This document shows positions 25,367 through 44,710 of a stretch of DNA of 64,000 nt, one piece after another. The stretch is from Candidatus Latescibacterota bacterium. GTDB taxonomy: Bacteria; Latescibacterota; UBA2968. A program made the translations under genes and the position numbers. Each line of letters starts with the position of its first letter. The stretch's first letter is position 1. Location of the stretch: NCBI GenBank assembly GCA_965222605.1, contig OZ244960.1, forward strand, positions 4,832,001 through 4,896,000, read 5' to 3'. Below the pieces are notes generated by a model, which saw only the letters and a list, made by a program, of their open reading frames with translations, did not search any database and was not told the origin of the DNA.

Positions 25367-27502
25367 ATGCAAGATAGCCAGGTCAATCGCATTCCCAACT
25401 TTATCTGGGGCATTGCCGACGATGTGTTGCGCGATCTGTATGTGCGGGGCAAGTACCGCGATATTATTCTGCCGATGACGGTGATTCGGCGGCTGGACGC
25501 GGCGCTTGAGCCGACCAAGCAGGCTGTTCTCGCTATGCAAGCCAGGCTCGACGCTGATGGCGTTGTTGAACAGGAAGCCGCCCTGAAGCAAGCTGCTGGG
25601 CACGCTTTTTACAACGCATCTCCATTCACTTTGCGCGATCTTCGTTCCCGCGCCAACCGACAGCAGCTGCGCGCTGATTTTGAGGCGTACCTGGATGGAT
25701 TTTCGTCCAATGTGCAGGATATTCTGAAGAATTTCGAGTTTCGCAACCAGATTCCGCGTTTGTCCGATGCCGATGCTCTGGGCGCGCTGATTGAAAAATT
25801 TCTGTCGCCGGATATCAATCTCAGTCCCTATCCGGTTGAGAATGGCGATGGCTCTGTGCGATTTTCCGGTCTGGACAATCACGCGATGGGTACTATTTTT
25901 GAGGAATTGGTGCGGCGGTTTAACGAGGAGAATAACGAGGAGGCCGGCGAACACTGGACGCCACGCGACGCTGTCAAGCTGATGGCGAGTCTGATTTTTC
26001 TTCCGGTTGCCGACGAGATTGAGTCGAGTACCTATTTGCTCTACGATGGTGCTTGCGGTACGGGTGGCATGCTAACTGTCGCAGAGGAGACGCTTCGAGA
26101 TCTCGCCCAGGCGCGTGGCAAGCAGGTTTCTACGCATCTTTACGGTCAGGAGATCAATGCCGAGACTTATGCTATTTGCAAGGCGGATCTGCTGCTGAAG
26201 GGCGAGGGCAGCGCGGCGGATAATATTATCGGCGGACCGGAATATTCGACGCTTTCAAACGATGCTTTCCCATCCCACAAGTTTGATTTTATGCTCAGCA
26301 ATCCGCCTTATGGCAAGAGTTGGAAGAATGATCTGGCTCGCCTGGGGGGTAAGAGTGGCTTATCCGATCCGCGCTTTCTCATCGTTCACGATAGCGACCC
26401 GGAGTATTCTCTGCTCACCCGCTCCAGCGATGGGCAGATGTTGTTCCTCGCCAATATGCTTTCGAAGATGAAGCGCGGTACCAGTCTGGGTAGCCGTATC
26501 GCCGAGGTCCACAATGGGAGTTCTCTGTTCACTGGCGACGCCGGGCAGGGCGAGAGCAATATCCGCCGCTGGATTATCGAGAATGACTATCTGGAGGCGA
26601 TTGTCGCGCTGCCGCTCAATATGTTCTACAATACCGGTATTGCCACGTATATCTGGGTGCTGACCAACCGCAAGCCAGCGCATCGGCAGGGTAAGGTGCA
26701 ACTTATTGATGCGACCGAGTGGTACAGCTCCCTGCGTAAGAATCTGGGTGCTAAGAACTGTGAGTTGTCCAATGATGACATCCGCCGCATTTGCGACGCT
26801 TTTCTCTCGTTTGAGGAGACGGAGCAGTCGAAGATTTTTCCCAATAAGGCTTTCGGCTACTATAAGGTGACGGTTGAACGACCGCTGAGGCTCGCTGTCG
26901 ATCTGTCGCCAGAGCACCGCGTGAGATTTCGGGATGTCTGCGGTGAAGCAAAGGAAGAACCGCTCGCCGATGTGGTTGATGGGGTAGCGGAGACTATCGG
27001 CAACGGTTCCCATCTCGATTTCAACAGTTTTATAGATGCGGTCGCCGCAGAGGCTTCTGAGCAGGGCGTCAAGCTGATCGCCAAGCGAAAGAAGCTGTTG
27101 CAAACGTCGCTGGCATTTCGGGATGAAGCTGCCGAACCGATTATTAAGAAGGTGCATAAACTCGGGAAGATGGAGCCAGACCCGATTCGCGGTCTGGTAG
27201 AGGCAACTGTGAACGGTCAGAGCGTTGTCGTTGAATATGAGCCAGATAGTGAGTTGCGCGATACCGAACAGGTGCCCCTGCTCGACGAGGGCGGTATTGA
27301 GGGTTTCTTGAGACACGAGGTATTGCCTTATGCTCCGGATGCATGGTACGTTTCGACGAGTGTTAAAATCGGCTATGAGATCAGCTTTACCCGCCACTTC
27401 TACAAGCCACAACCCATGCGTTCGCGAGAAGAAATCCGTGCTGATATAATGGTGCTGGAGCGGGAGAGTGAAGGGGTGTTGGCGGAGATTATTGGGGAGT
27501 AA
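25367..27502 (+). CDS. hsdM: type I R-M methyltransferase subunit
   Basis: FIWGIADDVLR, GEHWTPRD, YDGACGTGGML and SNPPY. Confidence 0.95.
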   Translation: MQDSQVNRIPNFIWGIADDVLRDLYVRGKYRDIILPMTVIRRLDAALEPTKQAVLAMQARLDADGVVEQEAALKQAAGHAFYNASPFTLRDLRSRANRQQLRADFEAYLDGFSSNVQDILKNFEFRNQIPRLSDADALGALIEKFLSPDINLSPYPVENGDGSVRFSGLDNHAMGTIFEELVRRFNEENNEEAGEHWTPRDAVKLMASLIFLPVADEIESSTYLLYDGACGTGGMLTVAEETLRDLAQARGKQVSTHLYGQEINAETYAICKADLLLKGEGSAADNIIGGPEYSTLSNDAFPSHKFDFMLSNPPYGKSWKNDLARLGGKSGLSDPRFLIVHDSDPEYSLLTRSSDGQMLFLANMLSKMKRGTSLGSRIAEVHNGSSLFTGDAGQGESNIRRWIIENDYLEAIVALPLNMFYNTGIATYIWVLTNRKPAHRQGKVQLIDATEWYSSLRKNLGAKNCELSNDDIRRICDAFLSFEETEQSKIFPNKAFGYYKVTVERPLRLAVDLSPEHRVRFRDVCGEAKEEPLADVVDGVAETIGNGSHLDFNSFIDAVAAEASEQGVKLIAKRKKLLQTSLAFRDEAAEPIIKKVHKLGKMEPDPIRGLVEATVNGQSVVVEYEPDSELRDTEQVPLLDEGGIEGFLRHEVLPYAPDAWYVSTSVKIGYEISFTRHFYKPQPMRSREEIRADIMVLERESEGVLAEIIGE

Positions 27503-31067: not shown

Positions 31068-31865
31068 ATGCAGTTTCAACATTACAATCTCGGACACCAA
31101 TCACAAGGTGCTGTTGTTGAAGTAACATTGTCGGGAAATGCCGCCAATGTTCGGCTACTTGATAGCACAAACTTCCAAAATTATCGCTCTGGTCGTACAC
31201 ATCGTTGTATCGGTGGTCTAATTAGACGTTCTCCTGCTCGTTTGACGATTCCACACACAGGAAATTGGCATGTAGTTGTTGACTTCCAAGGCCTGCGAGG
31301 TCAATGCCGTTCTTCGGTTCGTGTAATTCCCCGGACAGCACTGTCTCCACTCCCAGAATATTCATCCTCGTCCTCACTATCACCTCTGGTGAAGGCTGTA
31401 CACCAAGAAAACTCTACCGAGCGTACACTTGAAGGTTCTGGGCAATCTGAACATTATGACGTCTTCATTTGTCACGCTACTGAAGATAAGGACGACATTG
31501 TACGTCCGCTGACCAACGCACTAATTGCAGAGGATCTTAGGGTTTGGTACGACGAATTTGAACTTCGAATAGGTGACAGCCTGCGCCGAAAAATTGATAG
31601 TGGTCTCTCACGGAGCCGATTCGGAGTAGTTATAATTTCACATTCCTTTTTTGCGAAAAACTGGACTCAATACGAATTGGATGGACTCGTGACACGAGAA
31701 ATGACTGGTGAACAGGTAATTCTTCCGATTTGGCACCAAATCAGTAAGAGTGAGGTTATTGAAAAGAGTCCTTCGCTGGCGGACAAAGTCGCTCGCAACA
31801 CTTCGGAATTCACTATCGACGAGATTGCATGCGAAATCGCTGAAGTCACAAGGGCAAGTTTGTAA
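31068..31865 (+). CDS. DUF1883-TIR domain protein (putative NADase)
   Basis: N-terminal ANVRLLD..NFQNYRSG; TIR YDVFICHATEDK...WYDEF...GDSLRRKIDSGL...WTQYELDGL with catalytic Glu. Confidence 0.88.
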   Translation: MQFQHYNLGHQSQGAVVEVTLSGNAANVRLLDSTNFQNYRSGRTHRCIGGLIRRSPARLTIPHTGNWHVVVDFQGLRGQCRSSVRVIPRTALSPLPEYSSSSSLSPLVKAVHQENSTERTLEGSGQSEHYDVFICHATEDKDDIVRPLTNALIAEDLRVWYDEFELRIGDSLRRKIDSGLSRSRFGVVIISHSFFAKNWTQYELDGLVTREMTGEQVILPIWHQISKSEVIEKSPSLADKVARNTSEFTIDEIACEIAEVTRASL

Positions 31866-31886: not shown

Positions 31887-33224
31887 ATGATGTCCAACCT
31901 TAAACCCTACCCCCACTACAAACCCTCCGGTGTTAAGTGGCTCGGTGATGTGCCTGCCCATTGGGATGTGCAACGGCTTAAGTATCTATTGCAGGAGAGA
32001 GACATCCGATCTGCTGACGGAAGCGAGCAGTTGCTTAGTGTGTCACAATACACCGGGGTCACGCAGCGTAAGCGAGTAGATGGTGGAGATAACCCTGACA
32101 CTCGAGCAGAATCATTGATCGGCTACAAGTGTGTCGAACACAATGACCTTGTAGTGAATATCATGCTCGCCTGGAATGGTAGCATGGGCGTTTCACAATT
32201 CCGTGGTATTGCGAGTCCTGCTTACTGTGTCTACCGATTTTTGGCTGGTGTAAATCCATGGTTCTTTCACTATCTACTTCGTTCGCCGATTTACAAGGCA
32301 TATATCAAAACGGCATCCACTGGTGTAGTGGATAGTAGGCTTCGTTTGTACACTGATGATCTCTATTGTCTTTATGCTTTTGTCCCTCCCCTCGCTGAAC
32401 AAACCGCCATCGTCCGTTATCTCGACCAAGCCGATGAACGCATTCGTCGCTACGTCAGCAGCAGGGAGCGGCTTATCGAACTGTTGGAGGAATATCGGCA
32501 GGCGGTCATCCACCACGCAGTCACGCGCGGCCTTGCTCCCGATGTGCGCCTCAAGCCCTCGGGTGTGGAGTGGCTTGGTGATGTGCCAGCGCATTGGGAG
32601 GTGAGGCGGCTACGCTACTTGGTGAAAGGAAAACTGACATACGGTGCCAATGCTGCGGCTGAATATACAGACCCCGATTGGCCTCGCTATTTGCGGATTA
32701 CAGATTTTGATCAGGATGGAGTACTCAAAAGCAATACGTTTCGATCTCTACCTCCACAGGTAGCGAGAGATTACTTAGTTCAACCTGGAGATATTTTATT
32801 GGCACGGAGTGGTGCCACAGTGGGAAAAGCATTCTTAGTTCCAGCAGATGCTGGCGAAGCATGTTATGCTGGCTATTTGATCCGTGTCCGTCCTCATCGG
32901 TCACTAATCGAACCGCACTTTCTATTCGCTTTCACTCAAAGCACAGGCTTTACTCATTGGAAGAACTCGGCATTTATTTTATCCACAATTCAGAATATCA
33001 GTGCCGAGAAGTATGCTAATTTGCACGTTCCGTGTCCGCCGTTATCGGAACAGTTACAGATTATTCGCTATCTCGACAAGGCGACTGCTGATATTGACGC
33101 CACTATTGACCGCGCCCGGCGAGAAATTGGGTTGCTGGGCGAATACCGCACGCGGCTGATTGCCGATGTGGTTACGGGCAAAGTAGATGTGCGCGAGGCA
33201 GCGGCAGAGTTGTCCGCTGTTTAA
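31887..33224 (+). CDS. hsdS: type I R-M specificity subunit
   Basis: Two KPSGVxWLGDVPAHW repeats, two PPLxEQ spacers and a C-terminal LIADVVTGKVDVR. Confidence 0.95.
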   Translation: MMSNLKPYPHYKPSGVKWLGDVPAHWDVQRLKYLLQERDIRSADGSEQLLSVSQYTGVTQRKRVDGGDNPDTRAESLIGYKCVEHNDLVVNIMLAWNGSMGVSQFRGIASPAYCVYRFLAGVNPWFFHYLLRSPIYKAYIKTASTGVVDSRLRLYTDDLYCLYAFVPPLAEQTAIVRYLDQADERIRRYVSSRERLIELLEEYRQAVIHHAVTRGLAPDVRLKPSGVEWLGDVPAHWEVRRLRYLVKGKLTYGANAAAEYTDPDWPRYLRITDFDQDGVLKSNTFRSLPPQVARDYLVQPGDILLARSGATVGKAFLVPADAGEACYAGYLIRVRPHRSLIEPHFLFAFTQSTGFTHWKNSAFILSTIQNISAEKYANLHVPCPPLSEQLQIIRYLDKATADIDATIDRARREIGLLGEYRTRLIADVVTGKVDVREAAAELSAV

Positions 33225-33859
33225 TGGATAGAAATAGAGGTTATATGGACAATCGAGCAGTTCTTAAGATGACGCCCGGACGCGCCGCGCTGGTGGGGCT
33301 GATGAATTGCTATCTTCGCGGCTTAATGGATCCATTCGTGACGCTGCTGGAAGTGCATAAGCTCATGTATTTTATGCAGGCTGCAGGCGAGCCGTTGAAA
33401 CTGCAATTCGCCAAAGGCACTTATGGCCCTTATGCTGAGAACCTGCGGCATGTGTTGAACGCTGTTGATGGGTATCTGGTATCCGGATATGCCGATGGCG
33501 GCGATGCCCCCGATAAGGAATTGGAATTGGTTCCGGGTGCGCTCGATGATGCCCATGCGTTTCTCGAAACCGCACCTGAAACGCAGGCGTGCTTTGAAAG
33601 GGTTTCCGCGCTTATTGAAGGGTTCGAGTCGTCGTTTGGTCTGGAATTGCTCTCTACGGTGCATTGGATCGCCAGCGAGGAGAAGATATTGGTCTTTGAC
33701 GACATCGTGAATTACGCTTACGCTTGGAACGAAAGAAAGAAACAGTTTTCGCGGCGTCAGATTAAGATCGCATTTGATATTTTGTTGGAGAAGGGATGGA
33801 TTGAGCATCCCGATGTGGGTGAGACAGCGCATCCGGGCAGGACATCTCACAAAAAATAA
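33224..33859 (+). CDS. stand-alone DarG C-terminal domain (macrodomain absent)
   Basis: MTPGRAAL...EVHKLMYFMQ..GEPL.L.F...YGPYAENLRHVL...GFES.FGLELLSTVHW matches the DarG C-terminal half as recalled; TAATG coupling to hsdS. Confidence 0.8.
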   Translation: MDRNRGYMDNRAVLKMTPGRAALVGLMNCYLRGLMDPFVTLLEVHKLMYFMQAAGEPLKLQFAKGTYGPYAENLRHVLNAVDGYLVSGYADGGDAPDKELELVPGALDDAHAFLETAPETQACFERVSALIEGFESSFGLELLSTVHWIASEEKILVFDDIVNYAYAWNERKKQFSRRQIKIAFDILLEKGWIEHPDVGETAHPGRTSHKK

Positions 33860-35502: not shown

Positions 35503-35598
35503 ATACAACTGTTTACTGTTTTGTAATTTGTTTGATGGTTGTTTGATGGAAAGCCAAATGACCATTGACACCACCGAGCGCGGTGCGGAGGTTTTGAC

Positions 35599-37077
35599 AT
35601 GAACGGTCAACGTTCCCCCGAGTACCTGGAAGGTCTTCTCCGAGAGCTATGTGCTTTGCCGCACGAGACCGAGTGGTTAGAATTTAAGGAAGGCGACACC
35701 GACCCACAGGAGATCGGCGAGTATCTTTCTGCCCTTGCCAACTCGGCTGCACTTGTGGGCAAAGCCGCGGCTTATCTGGTGTGGGGTGTGCGCGATCAAG
35801 ACCACGCAGTCGTGGGGAGCAACTTCGATCCCAGGTCCGCCAGGAAGGGAAATGAGGAACTGGAAAATTGGCTGTTGCGTTTGCTTGAACCGAAGATTGA
35901 TTTTCATTTTTTTCCCTTGAGTACCGAGAAGGGGTCAGTCATTCTGACGGAAATTAACCGGGCTACGCGGCATCCGGTGCGCTTTGCTGGTCAGGAATAC
36001 ATCCGCGTGGGCAGCTATAAGAAAAAACTCAAGGATCATCCCGAAAAAGAACGGGCACTGTGGCGCATTTTTGACCAGACGCCATTCGAGGAAGGCGTAG
36101 CACTTGAACGGGCAACGGGCGACGATGTTGTTCGCCTGCTGGATTGTCAGGCATATTTCGACCTGCTGGAACTGCCACAGCCGAGGACCCAGCGCGGCCT
36201 TCTTGAGGTACTGGCAAGCGACGAATTGATCCGGCCTTCGGTCGCAGGTGGATGGGACATCACCAATCTCGGGGCGATACTCTTTGCCAAAGATCTCGAC
36301 GATTTTCGAACCTTGCGTCGAAAGGCCGTGCGTGTCATTCATTACAAGGGCAGTGGCCGGTTGGAGACCTTGAAGGAACGCGAAGTGCCCAAGGGCTATG
36401 CCTGTGGATTTGAAGGGCTGAACGAATACATCCACGCGTTATTACCGGAGAACGAGGTTATTGAACAGGCTCTACGTCGAACAGTAGCGACATTCCCAAT
36501 CGTAGCCGTGCGCGAACTGGTCGCCAACGCACTCATCCATCAGGATTTTTCGATTACTGGCGCAGGGCCAATGGTAGAAATATTCGATCGACATCTGGAG
36601 ATTACCAACCCCGGCGTGCCCCTCGTTGATATCGACCGATTGGTGGATGCGGCACCGAAATCGCGCAATGATAAACTGGCATCGCTCATGCGGCGCTTCA
36701 ACTTGTGTGAGGAGCGCGGCAGCGGCATCGACAAGGTGGTATTCCAAGTTGAGTTGTTCCAACTTCCTGCGCCGTTGTTCGAGACACCAGGAGACGCTAC
36801 CCGTGCCACGCTTTTTGCGCCTAAGGCACTGAGAGACATGGGGCGGCAGGAACGGATTCGCGCCTGTTATTTTCACGCCTGTCTGAATTATGTGATGAAC
36901 AAACCTGTCACCAACACCTCAATTCGCAGGCGATTTGGCATCCCGGACCACAATGCTTCGACAGCCTCACGGCTACTGAGTGAAGCCGTCGAAGCGGGTT
37001 TCATCGCCGTTGAGGAGGTCAACAGCGGCACCAGGAATCGCCGCTATGTGCCCTTCTGGGCTGCCCAGGCAGATTGA
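35599..37077 (+). CDS. Schlafen/AlbA_2 + HATPase_c_4 + wHTH protein
   Basis: ETEWLEFKE, SALAN, RELVANALIHQDF, EITNPG, RN..LA and EERGSGI. Confidence 0.88.
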   Translation: MNGQRSPEYLEGLLRELCALPHETEWLEFKEGDTDPQEIGEYLSALANSAALVGKAAAYLVWGVRDQDHAVVGSNFDPRSARKGNEELENWLLRLLEPKIDFHFFPLSTEKGSVILTEINRATRHPVRFAGQEYIRVGSYKKKLKDHPEKERALWRIFDQTPFEEGVALERATGDDVVRLLDCQAYFDLLELPQPRTQRGLLEVLASDELIRPSVAGGWDITNLGAILFAKDLDDFRTLRRKAVRVIHYKGSGRLETLKEREVPKGYACGFEGLNEYIHALLPENEVIEQALRRTVATFPIVAVRELVANALIHQDFSITGAGPMVEIFDRHLEITNPGVPLVDIDRLVDAAPKSRNDKLASLMRRFNLCEERGSGIDKVVFQVELFQLPAPLFETPGDATRATLFAPKALRDMGRQERIRACYFHACLNYVMNKPVTNTSIRRRFGIPDHNASTASRLLSEAVEAGFIAVEEVNSGTRNRRYVPFWAAQAD

Positions 37078-37083
37078 CGGCCA

Positions 37084-37260
37084 TTTGTTTGATGGTTGTT
37101 TGACGGTTGCTTGATGGTTGTTTGATAGAAAACCCGAAAAATGACTCAGTAGAGCAGATTCGATTTTTTAAATTATTGTTATTAAAATACTTACTGTTTT
37201 GTAATTTGCTTGATGGTTGTTTGATAGAAACCAAATGATCATCGACATTACCGAGCGCGT
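37084..37260 (+). repeat. direct repeat copy 2 with 4+2 tandem 11-mers
   Basis: ttgtttgatgg ttgtttgacgg ttgcttgatgg ttgtttgatag, then two more copies 99 bp downstream. Confidence 0.9.
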
Positions 37261-37427
37261 TTGATGTCTATTGCAGAGCGTCCCGATATTGGATATACTC
37301 TCACAGACTGGAATAGGCCCTGATGAGGCCACGCGAAATAATTTGGGGTGGAGGTCTTTGAAGAGGCTATGGAAGAATTGGGTGATGTGAAGATTGTGGT
37401 AGAGGACAACAATAAAGGTTGAAACCC

Positions 37428-38591
37428 ATGAGTAGCCGACGCTTGCAAATAACATTGCAGCCTGCTGTGTTGAGGTGGGCGCGGGAGCGGGCGCGCATTG
37501 ATGCTGAGCAATTGGCGGACAAGATGCAGGTGAAGCCGGAGCGCGTGTTGGATTGGGAGCGCGATGGCAAGATCAGTATAGCCCAGGCAGACAGACTTGC
37601 TCAACGCACGCATACCGCTCTGGGCTTACTATACTTGACAGAGCCGCCCAAAGACCTTTTGCCAATACCCGATTTTCGCGCCCGTGGCAATGAGCAGCAA
37701 CCGAGTGTCAATCTCCTCGAGACTATTTATCTTATGCAGCGTCGTCAAGCCTGGATGCGCGAGGAGTTGATCGGGGAAGGTGCCAGGCCGCTGAATTTTA
37801 TTGAGAGTTATGAGATAGATGGCGATCCCCTGCAAGTCGCCAGTGCGATGCGCGATGCACTCCAACTTGCTGACGATTGGGCAGCATCTGTATCTAACTG
37901 GTCTAATGCACTTGGGCATTTGCGGAGTAGAGCCGAGGATGCCGGTGTGCTGGTGGTTTTCAATGGCGTTGTGGGGAACAATACAAGCCGCAAACTCGAT
38001 CCAGATGAATTTCAGGGCTTTGCTCTCGTAGATGAGTATGCCCCGTTGGTCTTTGTGAACAATGCCGACTTCAAAGCAGCGCAGATGTTCACCCTGGCTC
38101 ACGAACTCGCACATCTTTTTGTGGGAAAGACCGGGGTATCCTGTTTTGAAGATCTCCAGTCCGCATCCAATGACACAGAGAAATTTTGTGATCAGGCAGC
38201 AGCGGAGTTTTTGGTGCCAGAGGCGGAGTTGCGTGATTTTTGGCCTACAGCTAAGCAGGCAAGCAATCCTTATGAGTCTGTTGCACGTCAATTCAAAGTG
38301 AGTTCTCTCGTAGCCGCACGCCGAGCGTGCGACCTCGGCTTGATTGACGCGGATGACTTTTTCGAATTTTATAAAAAATATATGGATAAGGAATGGTACA
38401 GTCAGCAAAGTCAAGCAAGTGGTGGAAATTTCTGGAATACTCAGAAATGGCGCATCGGCACCCGATTTGGCACTGCAATCTTTCGTGCGGTCAAGGAAGG
38501 CCGTCTGCTTTATCGCGAGGCGTACAATCTCACCGGTCTAAAGAGGGAGACTTTTGAAAACATGCCAGAAAAGATGGGGATATCGGTGTGA
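37428..38591 (+). CDS. XRE-HTH + ImmA/IrrE zinc metallopeptidase
   Basis: VLRWARER HTH; FTLAHELAH (HExxH); EKFCDQAAAEFLVP. Confidence 0.9.
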   Translation: MSSRRLQITLQPAVLRWARERARIDAEQLADKMQVKPERVLDWERDGKISIAQADRLAQRTHTALGLLYLTEPPKDLLPIPDFRARGNEQQPSVNLLETIYLMQRRQAWMREELIGEGARPLNFIESYEIDGDPLQVASAMRDALQLADDWAASVSNWSNALGHLRSRAEDAGVLVVFNGVVGNNTSRKLDPDEFQGFALVDEYAPLVFVNNADFKAAQMFTLAHELAHLFVGKTGVSCFEDLQSASNDTEKFCDQAAAEFLVPEAELRDFWPTAKQASNPYESVARQFKVSSLVAARRACDLGLIDADDFFEFYKKYMDKEWYSQQSQASGGNFWNTQKWRIGTRFGTAIFRAVKEGRLLYREAYNLTGLKRETFENMPEKMGISV

Positions 38592-39109
38592 TAAATCAGG
38601 CTCCATCCTTGTTCGTGCTGGATACAAATGTTTTTATAGAGGCGCATCGTCGCTATTACGCGCAAGACCTATGCCCGGGATTCTGGGATTGTCTGACGTA
38701 TTATTGTGGCGAGGGGCGGGTGTTAAGCATTGATCGCGTTCGTGCCGAAATACTCAGTAGTCCAGATCAACTATCTCAGTGGATCAACCAAGCACCGAGC
38801 AATCTATTTGTCTCATCAGCGGAACCATCAGTTGTAAATACTTTTACGAACATGATGAACTGGGTACAGGGGAATAATCAGTTTCTGCCTGCAGCAAAAA
38901 TGGATTTCGCAAATGTAGCTGATGGGTGGCTCGCGGCCTACGCGAGGGTTCACAACGCGGTTGTGGTTACTCAAGAGGTATATAGTCCAGGCGTGAGGAA
39001 AAGGGTACCCCTGCCAAATGTATGTAGGCAGTTTGATGTTGATTATCGAGACACTTTTGCGATGTTGCGCGAACTTGAGGTCAGTTTTGACTGGAGACGT
39101 TCTCCATGA
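38588..39109 (+). CDS. DUF4411 PIN-domain protein
   Basis: VLDTNVFIEA..RYY, ADGWLAAYA, VVTQE and LPNVC; 4-nt overlap with the peptidase gene. Confidence 0.88.
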   Translation: MINQAPSLFVLDTNVFIEAHRRYYAQDLCPGFWDCLTYYCGEGRVLSIDRVRAEILSSPDQLSQWINQAPSNLFVSSAEPSVVNTFTNMMNWVQGNNQFLPAAKMDFANVADGWLAAYARVHNAVVVTQEVYSPGVRKRVPLPNVCRQFDVDYRDTFAMLRELEVSFDWRRSP

Positions 39110-39134
39110 CCACTTTGACCTGAGTTGCCATCCA

Positions 39135-39326
39135 GTACTTGATTGGTACTTGACTGGTACTTGACTGACGACCAACGATGCGAGGTCACATTTTCCATAA
39201 GTTATTGAATATACGACGGTTATTTTATTTGACTGGTACTTGACTGACGATCAGGGATATGAGATCGTATTTTTCATAAACTGTTGAATATACGACGGTT
39301 ATTTTTCTTGACTGGTACTTGACTGA
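39135..39326 (+). repeat. 79-bp period tandem repeat built on gtacttgactg 11-mers
   Basis: ttgactggtacttgactga at 39150, 39229 and 39308; ttgaatatacgacggttatttt occurs twice. Confidence 0.92.
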
Positions 39327-39342
39327 AACCCCATTTCGAACG

Positions 39343-39408
39343 ATATATTTTCGTACTCGAAAAGCAATCCGAAGTGAGAGAGTAAGGTATGAAGGATCGG
39401 GATATTAA
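39343..39408 (+). pseudogene. putative 3' remnant of a brnT toxin gene
   Basis: Reads IYFRTRKAIRSERVRYEGSGY*, resembling the BrnT end IISARKAxxxERxxYE; its TAT-GAA codons overlap the next ATG. Confidence 0.5.
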
Positions 39409-42400
39409 ACTAACACAAGCTCAGAGAGAAGATTTGGACGCGCTTGCGGCGCTGCCCGATGACGAGATAGATACCTCTGATATTCCCGAGGTTTCCGGGG
39501 GGTCTAATTCTGTACGCGGGCTGTTTCATAAGTCCGCCAGTGAGCGGAGTAAGGCGATGGATGAACTTAGAAGCGGACGTCCGTCGGTTACGGATACCTC
39601 TGAACGCGGTTTGGAAGATCGCATTTGCGAGATGTTGGCTGGTAGGGCGGATGAATCGAGTGCGGGTGATGTCGGGGAACGTCCGGCTACTTATGATGTG
39701 GGTTGGCGTTATGGGGATCGCGAGGATTACGACCGCGAGGATTGCGTGGATCTGGCGCAGTTGACGGCTTTTCTGAAGGCGACGCAGCCGAAGGTTGCTG
39801 ACGCGCTGTCTTTGGAGAGCGATGATCCGACGCGGCGCCGGTTTCTCGCCCGGCTGAAGAGCGAGGTTGGCAGGCGCGGTATTGTCGATGCGCTTCGCAA
39901 AGGCGTCAAGCACGGGCCGTATGATATTACGCTTTTTTACGGCGCGCCGTCGCCGGGCAACCGACGGGCAGCGGAGTTTTACGAACAGAATCGCTTTTCG
40001 GTCACGCGCCAGTTGTCATATAGCAATGCCAATAAGCGGCTTGCGCTTGATCTTGCGCTGTTTATCAATGGCTTGCCGGTGGCGACTTTTGAGTTGAAAA
40101 ATAGTCTCACCAAACAGACGGTGGCAGATGCGGTTGAGCAGTACAAACGCGATCGAGATCCGAGGGAGGAACTTTTTCGCATTGGTCGTTGTTTGGCGCA
40201 CTTTGCCGTAGATGAACACGAGGTGATGTTCTGTACGCATCTCAGGGGCAAGTCGTCCTGGTTCCTGCCTTTCAATAAGGGTTGGGATGACGGCGCTGGC
40301 AATCCGCCTAATCCCAATGGTCTCAAGACCGATTATCTGTGGCAGGAGGTTCTGACCCGGCAGAGTTTGACCGATATTATCGAAAATTACGCTCTGCTGG
40401 TGGAATCTGCCGATGTAAAGACGGGGCGCAAGACGCGGACGCAGATTTGGCCGCGCTATCACCAACTGGATGTGGTGCGAAAATTACTGGCGGATGCTGG
40501 AAAAAACGGAGCGGGGCCGCGCTATCTTATCCAGCATTCGGCGGGTAGCGGGAAGTCCAATTCCATCGCCTGGTTGGCGCACCGGCTCATCGGGCTGGAA
40601 AAGGGTGGTGAGACGGTTTTTGATTCTATGATTGTTGTAACTGATCGGATTATTCTGGACCGGCAGATCAATGATACCATCCGGCAATTCGCGCAAGTGG
40701 GTGCGACGGTTGGGCATGCCGAAAGATCTGGCGACTTGCGGCGCTTTATCGACGAAGGTAAGAAAATTATTATTTCTACCGTGCAGAAGTTTCCGTTTAT
40801 TCTGGATGAGATTGGGACAGATCATCGAGGAAGCCGATTTGCCATCATAATTGACGAAGCGCATTCCAGCCAGGGTGGGCGCACGTCCTCGGCGATGGCG
40901 CAGGCACTGGGCGACCATGAGGACGGGGATGATGACGATACTTTTGAAGATAAGATCAACCGCATCATTGAGCAAAAGCGTCTGTTGACCAATGCCAGTT
41001 ATTTTGCCTTTACCGCTACGCCAAAGAATAAGACGCTGGAGTTATTTGGCACACCGTCGCCGCAGCCCGATGGCGCGACAAAGCATCGGTCGTTCCACAA
41101 CTATGCGATGAAACAGGCGATTGAGGAGGGGTTTATTCTGGATGTGCTGGGTAATTATACGCCGGTAACGAGCTACTACCATCTCGCCAAGACGATAGCA
41201 GATGACCCGGAATTTGATACGAAAAAGGCGAAGAAAAAGCTCATCCACTATGTGGAAACACACAGCCATGCCATCCGACTCAAAGCGGAGATTATGGTTG
41301 ATCACTTCCACGAGCAGGTGCTGGCACCGCGCAAAATCGGCGGACAGGCGCGGGCGATGGTCGTAACCGGTGGTATTCAGATGGCGATTGAATACTATCA
41401 CGCCATCCGCGACTATCTGAACGAGCGCAATAGCCCGCACAAAGCTATTGTCGCCTTCTCCGGTGAGACGGATTACGGCGGTGAGAGGGTGAGTGAAGCG
41501 TCGTTGAACGGTTTTCCGTCATCGCAGATTGCCAACAAGATTCAGGAAGATCCCTATCGGCTTCTGGTCTGCGCGGATAAGTTTCAGACGGGCTACGACG
41601 AGCCTCTGCTGCATGTGATGTACGTAGATAAGGTGCTGTCTGGTATCAAAGCAGTGCAAACTCTCTCGCGTCTCAACCGCGCCCACCCCGATAAGCGCGA
41701 TACGTTTGTGCTGGATTTCTACAATGACACTGACATGATAAAGGACGCTTTTGCTGACTACTACCGCACGACTATTTTGGCGGATGAAACCGATCCCAAC
41801 AAGTTGCACGATCTCAAGGCTGCGCTGGATGGCCGGCAGGTTTATTCCGATGAGCAAGTCCAAAATTTAGTAGAGTCGTATTTGAATGGCGATGACCGCG
41901 GGGCTTTCGATCCAATTCTGGACGTCTGCGTGGCGGTCTATCGAAGTGAGCTGGATGAGGACGGGCAAGTTGAATTTAAGGGCAATGCCAAAGCGTTTGT
42001 CCGTTCCTACACCTTCTTAGCTCAAGTGCTTCCCTATGAGAATGTAGCGTGGGAAAAGCTTTCCATTTTTTTGAATTTTCTCGTTCCGAAGCTGCCGACG
42101 CCCGTTACTGAAGATATGTCGCTGGGTATTGAAGGTGCTATTGATATGGATAGCTATCGCGCCGAGAAACAGGCGACGATGCATATTCTGCTGTCTGATG
42201 AGGATGCCGAAATCGAGCCGGTGCCCACAGGTGGTGGCGGCCATAAGCCAGATCCGGAAATGGACCGGCTTTCCAATATTCTCCAGGCGTTTAACGACCT
42301 TTTTGGCGATATTCCGTGGACCAATGAAGACCGCATACGCAGAATGATTACCGAGGATGTTCCGAGGATGGTTGATGCTGATAGTGCCTATCGCAATGCG

Positions 42401-42568
42401 CGGGAACACTCAGATGATCAGAATACGCGCATTGAACACGATAAGGCATTGGAGAAAGCGATCATGGCCCTGCTCACGGATGATACCGAACTCTACAAGC
42501 AATACTCTCAGAATGAAGCGTTTAAGCGTTGGCTGGAAAATAGCGTGTTCGAACTGACCAATCGCTAA
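39389..42568 (+). CDS. hsdR: type I R-M restriction subunit with BrnA-like N-terminal extension
   Basis: LDLALFINGLPVATFELKN, QHSAGSGKS, IIDEAH, FTATP and KFQTGYD; the usual start region TDTSERGLE lies about 67 aa in. Confidence 0.95.
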   Translation: MKDRDIKLTQAQREDLDALAALPDDEIDTSDIPEVSGGSNSVRGLFHKSASERSKAMDELRSGRPSVTDTSERGLEDRICEMLAGRADESSAGDVGERPATYDVGWRYGDREDYDREDCVDLAQLTAFLKATQPKVADALSLESDDPTRRRFLARLKSEVGRRGIVDALRKGVKHGPYDITLFYGAPSPGNRRAAEFYEQNRFSVTRQLSYSNANKRLALDLALFINGLPVATFELKNSLTKQTVADAVEQYKRDRDPREELFRIGRCLAHFAVDEHEVMFCTHLRGKSSWFLPFNKGWDDGAGNPPNPNGLKTDYLWQEVLTRQSLTDIIENYALLVESADVKTGRKTRTQIWPRYHQLDVVRKLLADAGKNGAGPRYLIQHSAGSGKSNSIAWLAHRLIGLEKGGETVFDSMIVVTDRIILDRQINDTIRQFAQVGATVGHAERSGDLRRFIDEGKKIIISTVQKFPFILDEIGTDHRGSRFAIIIDEAHSSQGGRTSSAMAQALGDHEDGDDDDTFEDKINRIIEQKRLLTNASYFAFTATPKNKTLELFGTPSPQPDGATKHRSFHNYAMKQAIEEGFILDVLGNYTPVTSYYHLAKTIADDPEFDTKKAKKKLIHYVETHSHAIRLKAEIMVDHFHEQVLAPRKIGGQARAMVVTGGIQMAIEYYHAIRDYLNERNSPHKAIVAFSGETDYGGERVSEASLNGFPSSQIANKIQEDPYRLLVCADKFQTGYDEPLLHVMYVDKVLSGIKAVQTLSRLNRAHPDKRDTFVLDFYNDTDMIKDAFADYYRTTILADETDPNKLHDLKAALDGRQVYSDEQVQNLVESYLNGDDRGAFDPILDVCVAVYRSELDEDGQVEFKGNAKAFVRSYTFLAQVLPYENVAWEKLSIFLNFLVPKLPTPVTEDMSLGIEGAIDMDSYRAEKQATMHILLSDEDAEIEPVPTGGGGHKPDPEMDRLSNILQAFNDLFGDIPWTNEDRIRRMITEDVPRMVDADSAYRNAREHSDDQNTRIEHDKALEKAIMALLTDDTELYKQYSQNEAFKRWLENSVFELTNR

Positions 42569-42579
42569 CGCCAAATACG

Positions 42580-42636
42580 CCGCGTAGTTTAAAAAACAGC
42601 CCGTCTAAAAAATTGGATGGGTTATTTTTTTATTCG
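42580..42636 (+). repeat. hairpin direct repeat, left of the second Schlafen gene (terminator-like)
   Basis: ccgcgtagtttaaaaaacagcccgtctaaaaaattggatgggttatttttt. Confidence 0.85.
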
Positions 42637-42640
42637 CAGT

Positions 42641-42686
42641 CTTGAAGATGCGGGCAAAGTTGACTATACTAAACGCAGCCTTGAAT
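42641..42686 (+). promoter_or_regulatory. sigma70-like promoter module, copy 2
   Basis: TTGAAG-N17-TATACT; homologous to 27548-27593. Confidence 0.7.
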
Positions 42687-42787
42687 ATGCGTTCTTTGAG
42701 TGTCTGGGCGAGAACAGTGTCGCGGACATTCTGACGTTGGTGCGGAGGCAAAGGGCTATTGAGCCAAATTATCGCAGGCGGTTTCTA

Positions 42788-44710
42788 ATGGCAGAACTAC
42801 GATTCGACATCACGCCGTTTCTGAATCAAGACGAAGGTCAGCACTTTGATCGCAAGTCTTTGTATGAAGGGATAGGTGAGGCCAAACGGTCACGTAATCG
42901 CCGCGCCGTGCGGGACCAGGTTGCGGAGTACATCGCTGCTTTCGCTAATGCCGAAGGTGGCGTATTGATCCTGGGCATAGAGGATGACCGCACCATTACT
43001 GGACACCGGCTACCGCAGGATGCCTTGAGCAATATCCTGAATACCCCGGGCACTCGTTTGCAGCCCGCACAACCCGATGGTTTTATTATGCATGTTGAAG
43101 GGCGCGAACTGATTGTTTTTGATGTACCGGCTTCGGATGTTCCCGTTCAAGTAATCGGGGATGGATTCCCGTTGCGAATGGGTGACCAGACAGTGCAATC
43201 CAGCGAGAGCCAAATCAATACGCTCAAGTTTGAAGGTATGGCGGAGAGTTGGGAAAGCCGACGGTCATCAATTACTTTGGCTGATTTGGATGAGCGACTG
43301 TTAGAGCGCGCGCGACAAGGGGCGGGTTTATCCGCTTTGAGTGATGAGGAGTACTTGCTCAAGCGCAAATTGGCCGACCGCCGTGGGCAAGGGATCGTGC
43401 TTCGAAATGCTGCGGAGTTGCTCTTTGCCCGTTATGGACCGGACCATCCCAATGCCGGTGTTCGCCTTTTTCGCGTCATTGGCACCCAGCGACATACTGG
43501 ACCCGAGCACAATGTCGAAGAACGCCCGCGTTGTGAAGGCAACTTGCCTGCGGTCATATCGGAAATTCGCACTGTCATCAGCAGTTTGCTGCGACGTCCT
43601 ATGCGGCTCGTGGGTAGCCGCTTTCAGGAATCCGCCGAATATCCGGATTTTGCGTGGCTGGAGGCATTGCTCAATGCCATCGCGCACCGCGATTATAGAG
43701 TTGAAGGCGCAGGCATTGAGGTCTGGCTATTCGATGACCGCATGGAAGTGGTCAGTCCCGGCGGTCTGGTAGGCAACTTGACTACAGAAGAGTTGCTCAC
43801 GCTCAAGCGCGTTCATCACAGCCGCAATCCTCGCGTTATTCGAGTGCTTGTAGATCTCGGTCTCGCACGCGACCAGGGCGAGGGTATTCCGCGGATGTTT
43901 GCAGAGATGGAAGACGCTTTTTTGCCAAGGCCAGATATAGATGCTACCAACCGAAGTGTTACAGTTACGCTTCGGAATACGCTTACCCTAAATGCTATCG
44001 ATCGAGAATTTATCTCGGCTCTCGGCGACCTTGAGCTTTCTCGCAATGAGTTTCGGACATTGCTTTACACCTATCGTCATGGTCAGATAGACAATGCCAG
44101 GTTGCGTGCTTTATCCGGTCTCGACACTTTAAATGCCAGTTACCTTTTGCGCGGCCTCCGCGACCGGGATTTGTTGGCGCTTCATTCTCACGGTCCCAAC
44201 AGCTACTACACACTGACTTCTGTTCTGACATCGAAAGTTGGAGATTACAAAGCGAAAGGTGAGGAGCTCGGCACGGATGCAGAGGAGTTCAGTACGGATA
44301 TAGAGGAGCTCGGCACGGATGCAGAGGAGTTCAGTACGGATATAGAGGAGCTCGGCACGGATGCAGAGGAGTTCAGTACGGATATAGAGGAGCTCGGCAC
44401 GGATGCAGAGGAGTTCAGTACGGATACGGGTAAGCTTCCCAACGACATCAAAGCAGCTATTGACCAACTTGGCCGGCGACCACGTCGAGAGAATCTACGC
44501 CCCGTCATTCGTGCAATATGCGATCAAGGGAGATGGGTAACTTCCGCTGAACTCGCCCAACTCCTCAACTTCCACCAAAATAACCTGATGTCGGCACACA
44601 TCACTCCGATGATACATAGCGGAGAACTTGAGTCACGCTTTCCAGACAAGCCTAATCATCCTCGCCAAGCTTACCGAGCCGTTGTATCCCAACACCCTGA
44701 AACAAGTTAG
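42788..44710 (+). CDS. Schlafen/AlbA_2 + HATPase_c_4 + wHTH protein with acidic repeat linker
   Basis: EGQHFDRKS, AAFANAEGGVLILGI, EALLNAIAHRDY, EVVSPGG, GEGIPRM and C-terminal PDKPNHPRQAY. Confidence 0.88.
   Translation: MAELRFDITPFLNQDEGQHFDRKSLYEGIGEAKRSRNRRAVRDQVAEYIAAFANAEGGVLILGIEDDRTITGHRLPQDALSNILNTPGTRLQPAQPDGFIMHVEGRELIVFDVPASDVPVQVIGDGFPLRMGDQTVQSSESQINTLKFEGMAESWESRRSSITLADLDERLLERARQGAGLSALSDEEYLLKRKLADRRGQGIVLRNAAELLFARYGPDHPNAGVRLFRVIGTQRHTGPEHNVEERPRCEGNLPAVISEIRTVISSLLRRPMRLVGSRFQESAEYPDFAWLEALLNAIAHRDYRVEGAGIEVWLFDDRMEVVSPGGLVGNLTTEELLTLKRVHHSRNPRVIRVLVDLGLARDQGEGIPRMFAEMEDAFLPRPDIDATNRSVTVTLRNTLTLNAIDREFISALGDLELSRNEFRTLLYTYRHGQIDNARLRALSGLDTLNASYLLRGLRDRDLLALHSHGPNSYYTLTSVLTSKVGDYKAKGEELGTDAEEFSTDIEELGTDAEEFSTDIEELGTDAEEFSTDIEELGTDAEEFSTDTGKLPNDIKAAIDQLGRRPRRENLRPVIRAICDQGRWVTSAELAQLLNFHQNNLMSAHITPMIHSGELESRFPDKPNHPRQAYRAVVSQHPETS
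44261..44426 (+). repeat. in-frame 42-bp tandem repeat (about 4 copies)
   Basis: gaggagctcggcacggatgcagaggagttcagtacggatata, encoding EELGTDAEEFSTDI. Confidence 0.97.

Follow-up and report, generated by a model that had tools for sequence, protein, structure and literature searches.

We describe the restriction subunit gene, hsdR, of a type I restriction-modification system in a Candidatus Latescibacterota bacterium, and in particular the N-terminal peptide of its product, which profile comparisons relate to the antitoxin BrnA of the BrnT/BrnA toxin-antitoxin (TA) family. The gene lies in a 64,000-nucleotide stretch of DNA, here called the window (positions 4,832,001-4,896,000 of contig OZ244960.1), and the 6.3 Mb host genome is a single contig. 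The open reading frame (ORF) at 39389-42568 on the forward strand encodes a 1059-residue HsdR that begins MKDRDIKLTQAQREDLDALAALPDDEIDTSDIPEVSGGSNSVRGLFHK, just as an earlier prediction made from the sequence alone (the original prediction) had quoted it. Its assignment as a type I HsdR follows from the Pfam domains HSDR_N (residues 199-288, 67.9 bits), SWI2_SNF2 (residues 358-603, 88.5 bits) and ResIII (55.1 bits), together with a PADLOC REase_I match (137.9 bits), GSGKS and DEAH motifs, and hsdM and hsdS genes in the neighbourhood (Table 1); a T1R_D3-like Pfam match is also found. The NCBIfam hsdR model TIGR00348 scores 195.4 bits, under its curated cut-off of 284.55, and the closest solved HsdR is that of EcoR124I (E = 4e-11); by its sequence the protein belongs to a divergent subfamily. 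Both hsdM and hsdS lie upstream of hsdR and are parted from it by inserted genes, which include an IS110 transposase, a DUF1883-TIR gene, a DarG C-terminal fragment, a DDE transposase, an AlbA_2/HATPase_c_4 gene and an HTH-ImmA/DUF4411 pair.

Table 1. Features of the hsdR locus, with positions counted from the first nucleotide of the window.
Feature	Position	Strand	Description
hsdM, same type I system	25367-27502	+	Pfam HsdM_N and N6_Mtase; PADLOC MTase_I, 819.8 bits
hsdS, same type I system	31887-33224	+	Pfam Methylase_S; PADLOC Specificity_I, 395.6 bits
Tandem repeat array	39136-39326	+	11-mer GTACTTGACTG three times, then a 79-bp unit 2.3 times; occupies the place of brnT in relatives
brnT 3′ remnant	39358-39408	+	last 16 codons and stop (RKAIRSERVRYEGSGY, stop); 20-nt overlap with the hsdR ATG
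BrnA-type N-terminal, putative BrnT-binding peptide (module)	39389-39532	+	HsdR residues 1-48; profile search, PDB 7vd7_B
Linker	39533-39589	+	HsdR residues 49-67 (SASERSKAMDELRSGRPSV); holds a second in-frame ATG (M57, 39557-39559)
HsdR proper (complete type I restriction subunit)	39590-42568	+	HsdR residues 68-1059: nuclease domain, SF2 helicase-family motor, C-terminal region

The N-terminal extension is a conserved feature of this group of HsdR proteins. A search with residues 1-110 yielded, from 668 candidates, five homologue clusters, all of which keep the extension (1059-1076 residues, 100% cover of the query region, 46-87% identity), and 23 of 58 columns are invariant in a six-sequence alignment of residues 1-58. 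A profile built from this region of the six HsdR homologues (A1) was searched against 1.84 billion representatives; at E ≤ 1e-3 it matched 1620 proteins, 177 of which also passed E ≤ 1e-10. When the best 150 of these 1620 were scanned with Pfam, 20 proved to carry BrnA_antitoxin (PF14384), 4 CopG_antitoxin and 2 HSDR_N, with one each for MazE, a HicB-like domain and phage lysozyme, while the rest mostly had no Pfam family at E ≤ 0.01 and a few had other single families. By a crude hand-made pattern, an HsdR N-terminus follows the peptide in 13 of the best 150 matches, and 62 are at most 80 residues long. In full BrnAs that carry the peptide (for example those of loci L057 and L065), it lies ahead of the ribbon-helix-helix (RHH) domain. 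The profile also matches, over its positions 11-48, the 44-residue “antitoxin” chain 7vd7_B (E = 2.3e-8). Among solved structures, the “toxin” chain of the same entry, 7vd7_A, comes nearest to the BrnT proteins encoded beside related hsdR genes (E = 2.1e-16 with the BrnT of locus L011, E = 3.9e-25 with a BrnT profile). On the strength of these two matches, the HsdR peptide can be equated with the antitoxin piece crystallised with a BrnT-like toxin; we found no publication for PDB 7VD7.

The near-invariant residues L19, I27, D28, D31, P33, E34, R43 and G44 are all retained in the window peptide, and the core of the module does not vary even between HsdRs with no more than about 50% identity. 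PF14384 and NCBIfam are silent on residues 1-60 and 1-70, even at E ≤ 10, and the whole HsdR is likewise without a PF14384 match at E ≤ 10. In the full BrnAs of L057 and L065 this model spans only the second half of the peptide plus the RHH domain; the miss on HsdR is explained by the model covering mostly the RHH part, and we do not regard it as evidence against homology. The likeness to BrnA noted in the original prediction is thus borne out by the six-sequence profile and by 7vd7_B, though not by the Pfam model, and it supports a BrnA origin for the N-terminus of this HsdR. An Atlas search, used as a lead only, placed 61-72-residue hypothetical proteins in the nearest clusters (0.89-0.90) and a BrnA cluster 23rd (0.82). 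Taken across its hosts, the N-terminal peptide of BrnA appears as a portable tag, found with RHH, CopG, MazE, HicB-like, lysozyme, HATPase_c_4 and HsdR partners. A tandem double peptide also occurs, in P0009 (163 residues, before an HsdR N-terminus) and in P0020, P0021 and P0049, where it precedes RHH-type domains.

Following the module, the native HsdR N-terminus resumes at T68 (T68-D-T-S-E-R-G-L-E). Unfused relatives open with M-T-T-D-T-S-E, and this match at the native start indicates that the whole of HsdR has been retained. The original prediction had the protein switching to HsdR just where the RHH domain of BrnA would begin; the BrnA-like part does stop at about residue 48, but a 19-residue linker intervenes. 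A linker-like stretch after the module is also present in two proteins other than HsdR (P0016 and P0017).

Upstream of hsdR, the frame that overlaps its ATG is identified by alignment as a true 3′ remnant of brnT. Its end matches the C-terminus of the 94-residue BrnT of L011, a Latescibacterota locus in which that protein ends RKATRSERLRYEESGY and its gene overlaps hsdR by the identical 20 nt. The stop of the remnant falls at 39406-39408, 20 nt within hsdR, and 13 of its last 16 residues are identical to the L011 BrnT C-terminus by manual count. The original prediction was therefore right to see a brnT remnant here, although the frame ends in RKAIRSERVRYEGSGY and not in RYE. Weak similarity to brnT may reach back to about 39337. 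In a DNA alignment the window resembles L011 from about 39358 onward, and upstream of this point the tandem array replaces the body of brnT; three contig joints in other samples stop exactly at 39358. The 18-mer TTGACTGGTACTTGACTG has four matches in the 6.3 Mb genome, all within this array, whose period of 11 bp is close to one helical turn and which contains TTGACT boxes. Relatives carry variant arrays (of the GGTAATTGAC type) at the equivalent place, and a regulator-binding site and a recombination site are both possibilities for its function. No BrnT or BrnA model matches anywhere in the window; a scan of 38900-39700 for sigma-70 promoters and terminators gave counts not above those of shuffled sequence, and Rfam returned nothing for 38500-39700 at E ≤ 1. 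One record (17) of an RNA-library run (X23) covers 39411-40152 at about 89% identity. DNA may occur in such libraries, and sequencing-run evidence of this kind, drawn from Logan contigs, is silent on start, strand and expression level.

The arrangement from which this remnant would stem is preserved in relatives. Hidden Markov models for BrnT (five seed sequences) and for the peptide were used to scan the six-frame ORFs of 179 loci, and in nine of them an intact brnT ends within the start of a peptide-fused hsdR, with an overlap of 8-29 nt that is exactly 20 nt in six. These nine comprise L011 from Latescibacterota and eight loci from Chloroflexota/Dehalococcoidia (L022, L023, L024, L025, L028, L029, L032 and L038), six of which have hsdS directly upstream of brnT. 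Further fusions of BrnA to HsdR behind an intact brnT, for which the original prediction had suggested a search, thus exist in two phyla. In the available DNA of the nine loci there is no other module-bearing ORF, which leaves HsdR as the sole candidate antitoxin seen there. The fusion without brnT is present in six distinct loci (the window, L012, L013, L014, L016 and L027, where L013 and L014 are the contigs also numbered L021 and L020 and are counted once each), and broken copies occur in L026 and L034. The unfused state survives as well, with brnT-brnA upstream of a tag-less hsdR in L057, L064, L065 and L079, and a small peptide-bearing ORF in that position in L037, L058 and L074. In L057 an N-terminal fragment of hsdR directly follows brnA, the kind of adjacency in which a deletion would give rise to the fusion. 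The junction sequences differ between groups, with at least five kinds found, and the fused state needs at least seven changes on a FastTree tree built from 76 HsdR bodies (a tree with local support values only and with long branches flagged), which suggests that the fusion is old, recurrent or repeatedly exchanged. By these comparisons brnT-brnA′::hsdR is a real and recurrent architecture. In a separate scan of metagenome contigs, whose patterns mostly caught tag-less HsdRs, none of the 80 loci had a module match at E ≤ 1e-3, and the sole BrnT match was in L117. No literature description of a fusion between a BrnA peptide and HsdR was found, and the supplementary tables of PMC11980606 and PMC11090510 may bear on this point.

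The cognate toxin of the relatives matches only the BrnT family PF04365, without homology to PrrC, and the L011 protein is full-length (83.3 bits, positions 1-77 of the 77-position profile). Among the relatives' BrnTs, D6 is kept in 11 of 12 and K9, R45 and E85 in 12 of 12 each, while position 7 varies. The four conserved residues align with Asp6, Lys9, Arg41 and Glu78 of Brucella BrnT, which are listed among five residues important for its ribonuclease activity (review PMC5086665). TTG is the only available start of the BrnT ORF in eight of the nine fused loci, the exception being L022, whose ORF has no ATG, GTG or TTG, and such starts may hold translation of the toxin low. We also predicted a complex between BrnT (an alignment with L011 as its first row) and residues 1-66 of the window HsdR. 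The prediction scored 0.47, with 0.01 for the best of three controls; the runs share at least 90% of contacts, and the partner has a predicted local distance difference test score (pLDDT) of at least 70. In a benchmark, 58 of 80 solved complexes and 2 of 110 mismatched pairs attained the mark; only 7 of the 80 solved complexes, and both of the passing mismatches, did so at scores of 0.60 or less. A similar complex, 7VD7, has already been solved, and the pass may reflect the memory of the model.

The state of the peptide in this genome and genus differs from that in the brnT-keeping relatives. The module occurs once in the host genome, which also holds four intact BrnT genes elsewhere; these are 28-38% identical to the cognate (L011) type, and each has a gene of its own immediately downstream, and two of these downstream genes match the Pfam BrnA model or come close to doing so. 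Sixty related genomes were sampled; the 20 congeners among them yielded the peptide in 13 cases, the 40 genomes outside the genus in none. Eight of the 15 genus copies, including that of the window, are on HsdR and two are on a 490-residue HATPase_c_4 protein, while four lie in stand-alone ORFs of 74-75 residues and one in an ORF of 102 residues. Among the 14 module-carrying genomes of the genus, brnT is intact in one and partial in one. An aromatic position five residues before the RG motif is occupied by W in 110 and by F in 11 of the 131 pattern-matched proteins (among the best 150 scanned), and it is W in all eight Chloroflexota brnT loci; the window peptide has G38 there, and by reading of the sequences none of the 15 genus copies has an aromatic residue. 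Pairwise ratios of nonsynonymous to synonymous substitution (dN/dS), from six sequences whose pairs are not independent, are 0.13-1.24 for codons 1-56 versus 0.07-0.12 for codons 71-1059. A canonical, tag-less hsdR start is present in L015 and in a contig of run X3. The combined results indicate that the toxin partner is being lost in the genus and that the tag is under relaxed, perhaps not absent, constraint.

Other placements of the peptide were observed in the genus loci. In L180, L186, L187 and L190 (at about 1498-1725 in each), the peptide and linker are followed by TDTSEHR and a stop, with an AlbA_2 gene then downstream, and these four stand-alone ORFs are intact although brnT is absent. 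In L015 (4203-5672), L192 and L193, the peptide and linker are carried by a 489-residue HATPase_c_4 (“RecG C-terminal”-type) protein, encoded by a gene that lies just upstream of a tag-less hsdR. Since the same peptide and linker appear on both proteins, the tag seems to have been swapped between proteins of the island.

We consider it probable that the N-terminus of this HsdR is a BrnA-derived, BrnT-binding tail, that HsdR acts as the antitoxin in relatives that keep brnT, and that in the window the tail is an orphan tag that supplies a start. The fusion would go back to a brnT-brnA cassette that lay between hsdS and hsdR, in which the antitoxin lost its RHH DNA-binding domain and its N-terminal peptide became fused to HsdR. 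In the brnT-keeping relatives HsdR would then most likely be the antitoxin, holding the BrnT ribonuclease on its N-terminal tail; that the tail neutralises BrnT is argued from the toxin being intact while no separate antidote is seen. In the window, brnT has been replaced by the 79-bp tandem repeat, with its last 16 codons left behind. The peptide there is most likely a leftover, whose main remaining role would be to provide the start codon and 5′ end of hsdR, and we infer that any part it had in toxin binding has been lost. The original prediction had proposed that HsdR could hold a BrnT ribonuclease in trans and release it when HsdR is degraded or inhibited, with a deletion scar that merely supplies a start site as the alternative. 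For the window copy the alternative fits better, as it has no cognate brnT, the resident BrnTs are divergent and G38 stands at the aromatic position; the proposed mechanism is plausible for the clade rather than for this copy.

Several observations weigh against reading the window peptide as a relic. The peptide ORF is intact in all 15 genus copies, four of which have the hsdR body deleted, and some constraint unrelated to the expression of hsdR may persist; it is chiefly the intact stand-alone ORFs that speak against a pure relic. The dN/dS values of the module mostly lie below 1. L011, the one genus locus that retains an intact brnT, is also without the aromatic residue, and the absence of this residue need not mean that binding has been lost. 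For the wider explanation, with its BrnT-binding tail, two further points count against: the Pfam BrnA model fails to recognise the peptide, and the in-silico support that the predicted complex lends to binding between the peptide and BrnT is weak.

These same observations bear on the alternatives. We think it unlikely that the tag works in trans in this organism, sequestering a resident or mobile-element BrnT in an anti-addiction role and releasing it upon degradation or inhibition of HsdR. The four resident BrnT genes, the module ORF kept open even where hsdR is gone, the near-invariant residues retained in the module and, weakly, the predicted complex with a BrnT of another genome (0.47 versus 0.01 for the best control) would all suit such a role, but the resident toxins are only 28-38% identical to the cognate type and each already has a gene of its own behind it, the aromatic position holds G, module dN/dS is about five-fold above that of the HsdR body, and natural tag-less alleles occur. 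At the opposite extreme, the fusion could be a neutral deletion scar everywhere, its peptide never having been an antitoxin and the BrnTs of the relatives being inactive or otherwise neutralised. That the Pfam BrnA model leaves the peptide unmatched, and that the junction region is a hotspot of insertion and rearrangement, would be compatible with this. Nine intact brnT genes that overlap a fused start by 8-29 nt with no other module-bearing ORF, the conservation of residues aligned with those needed for ribonuclease activity, the at least five junction sequences and at least seven changes on the FastTree tree, and a module core that is invariant among HsdRs about 50% identical all argue against it, and we give it a slightly smaller chance than action in trans.

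The remaining alternative concerns where translation begins. The original prediction had pointed to a shared 8-mer upstream of two in-frame ATGs and had suggested long and short isoforms of HsdR. The 8-mer GAGTAAGG is indeed found at both places (39380-39387 before the ATG at 39389, and 39547-39554 before the ATG at 39557), and the main start could lie at the second of these, giving a near-canonical HsdR with the upstream 56 codons as an untranslated leader in this genome. In support of this, the 8-mer ends 2 nt before that ATG, and M57 is 11 residues ahead of the native HsdR N-terminus. In P0005-P0008, four of the five homologue clusters, however, I or L takes the place of M57, and the M57 codon is ATA in L016, the 56 codons are open in 15 of 15 genus copies, and in our reading the 8-mer is too near both ATGs for a typical ribosome-binding site. 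A main start at 39557 is accordingly the most improbable of these alternatives, the case for two isoforms is weak, and a short isoform as a conserved feature is ruled out by the variation at M57.

The preferred reading, a BrnA-derived tail that is antitoxic in relatives and orphaned in the window, can be set against several known systems. As in the type II TA system BrnT/BrnA of Brucella abortus (PF04365, PF14384), a toxin of the same family is encoded upstream in relatives, the genes overlap in the order toxin then antitoxin, and the HsdR peptide is homologous to the pre-RHH peptide of module-bearing BrnAs. In contrast to that system, a 990-residue HsdR stands in place of the RHH domain, PF14384 is silent, and in the window the toxin gene is gone; because the DNA-binding domain has been replaced by HsdR, autoregulation of the BrnA type would be impossible. 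In PDB 7VD7, the 44-residue antitoxin chain aligns with the HsdR profile and the toxin chain is near the cognate BrnT, but the antitoxin there is a free peptide or construct with no enzyme tail, and it has the W that is absent from the window peptide. A functional parallel is PrrC, which EcoprrI, a type Ic enzyme, holds latent until an inhibitor of EcoprrI from a phage activates it (PMC1484252). There a ribonuclease gene lies within a type I hsd locus, and its product is silenced by association with the enzyme (PMC1484252, PMC12707154); relatives of the window locus have the order hsdS-brnT-hsdR. PrrC is an ABC-ATPase/anticodon nuclease that is unrelated to BrnT and is bound non-covalently, whereas the putative neutralising element of the window-type HsdR is covalently fused to it. 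By this analogy, a tethered toxin is a plausible reading for the relatives. A fuller version, in which BrnT on the HsdR tail is freed once HsdR disappears, is degraded by proteolysis (restriction alleviation) or is put out of action by a phage, with the window copy decayed, is one that we offer tentatively and think somewhat doubtful.

Two further precedents link BrnT to restriction loci. In the immigration control region of E. coli, brnAT cassettes accompany type I hsd genes (PMC12707154), and this linkage of brnTA to hsdRMS resembles the unfused state in L057 and L065; the genes there are separate and BrnA is complete, and the part of the paper available mentions no fusion to HsdR. RtcR-associated CoCoNuT (type IV restriction) systems have BrnT-like genes immediately upstream of them, which places BrnT without its classical partner beside a large restriction-type gene (PMC11090510), and components of BrnTA enter fusions that include a single-chain BrnT-BrnA (PMC11980606). 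These cases involve other partner proteins, and in the available parts of the two papers no fusion of an antitoxin peptide to HsdR is described.

Type I restriction loci are known hosts of TA and abortive-infection genes, and PrrC provides the precedent that a restriction enzyme can keep a ribonuclease silent. If the reading is true, a BrnT with no visible antidote other than a peptide incorporated in HsdR would represent a second solution of this kind, independent and much simpler. As a covalently linked counterpart of PrrC-EcoprrI, it would make translational shutdown follow when restriction fails, and the hsdR gene would be made addictive, with restriction failure or HsdR turnover linked to toxin release. 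For the host genome alone the significance is modest, as what it holds is a decaying remnant in a much-rearranged defence island.

The rest of the island shows other signs of rearrangement. Two more arrays of 11-bp direct repeats (of the GGTTGTTTGAT type) lie at 35513-35584 and 37081-37259, just upstream of an AlbA_2 gene and the HTH-ImmA gene, respectively, and a short copy of the canonical start of hsdR comes after each of them (ATG ACC ATT GAC ACC ACC GAG CGC G, encoding MTIDTTER, and a copy encoding MIIDITER). Together with L015 and L057, these repeat arrays and hsdR-start copies suggest that defence cassettes were inserted serially at the extreme 5′ end of hsdR, and that every insertion duplicated the head of the gene. 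A 211-residue ORF at 33224-33859 corresponds to the C-terminal part of DarG only (PADLOC, 168.8 bits, positions 154-328 of 329), with neither a macro domain nor a nearby DarT seen; L011 has a complete DarT-DarG at the equivalent place, and the ORF is probably a decayed DarTG system. Directly before hsdS, a DUF1883-TIR protein is encoded at 31068-31865 (PADLOC PDC-S66, 240 bits; ThsB-like). At 37419-39109, directly upstream of the hsdR-proximal repeat array, an HTH-ImmA/IrrE protein (RmrA- or CapP-like in PADLOC) is encoded by a gene that overlaps a DUF4411 PIN-like gene by 4 nt, and the two are likely a two-gene TA or defence pair. AlbA_2 (Schlafen-like)/HATPase_c_4 genes stand on either side of the hsdR region, at 35599-37077 and 42617-44710, and the latter contains a 21-bp coding tandem repeat at 44219-44468 in nine overlapping copies.

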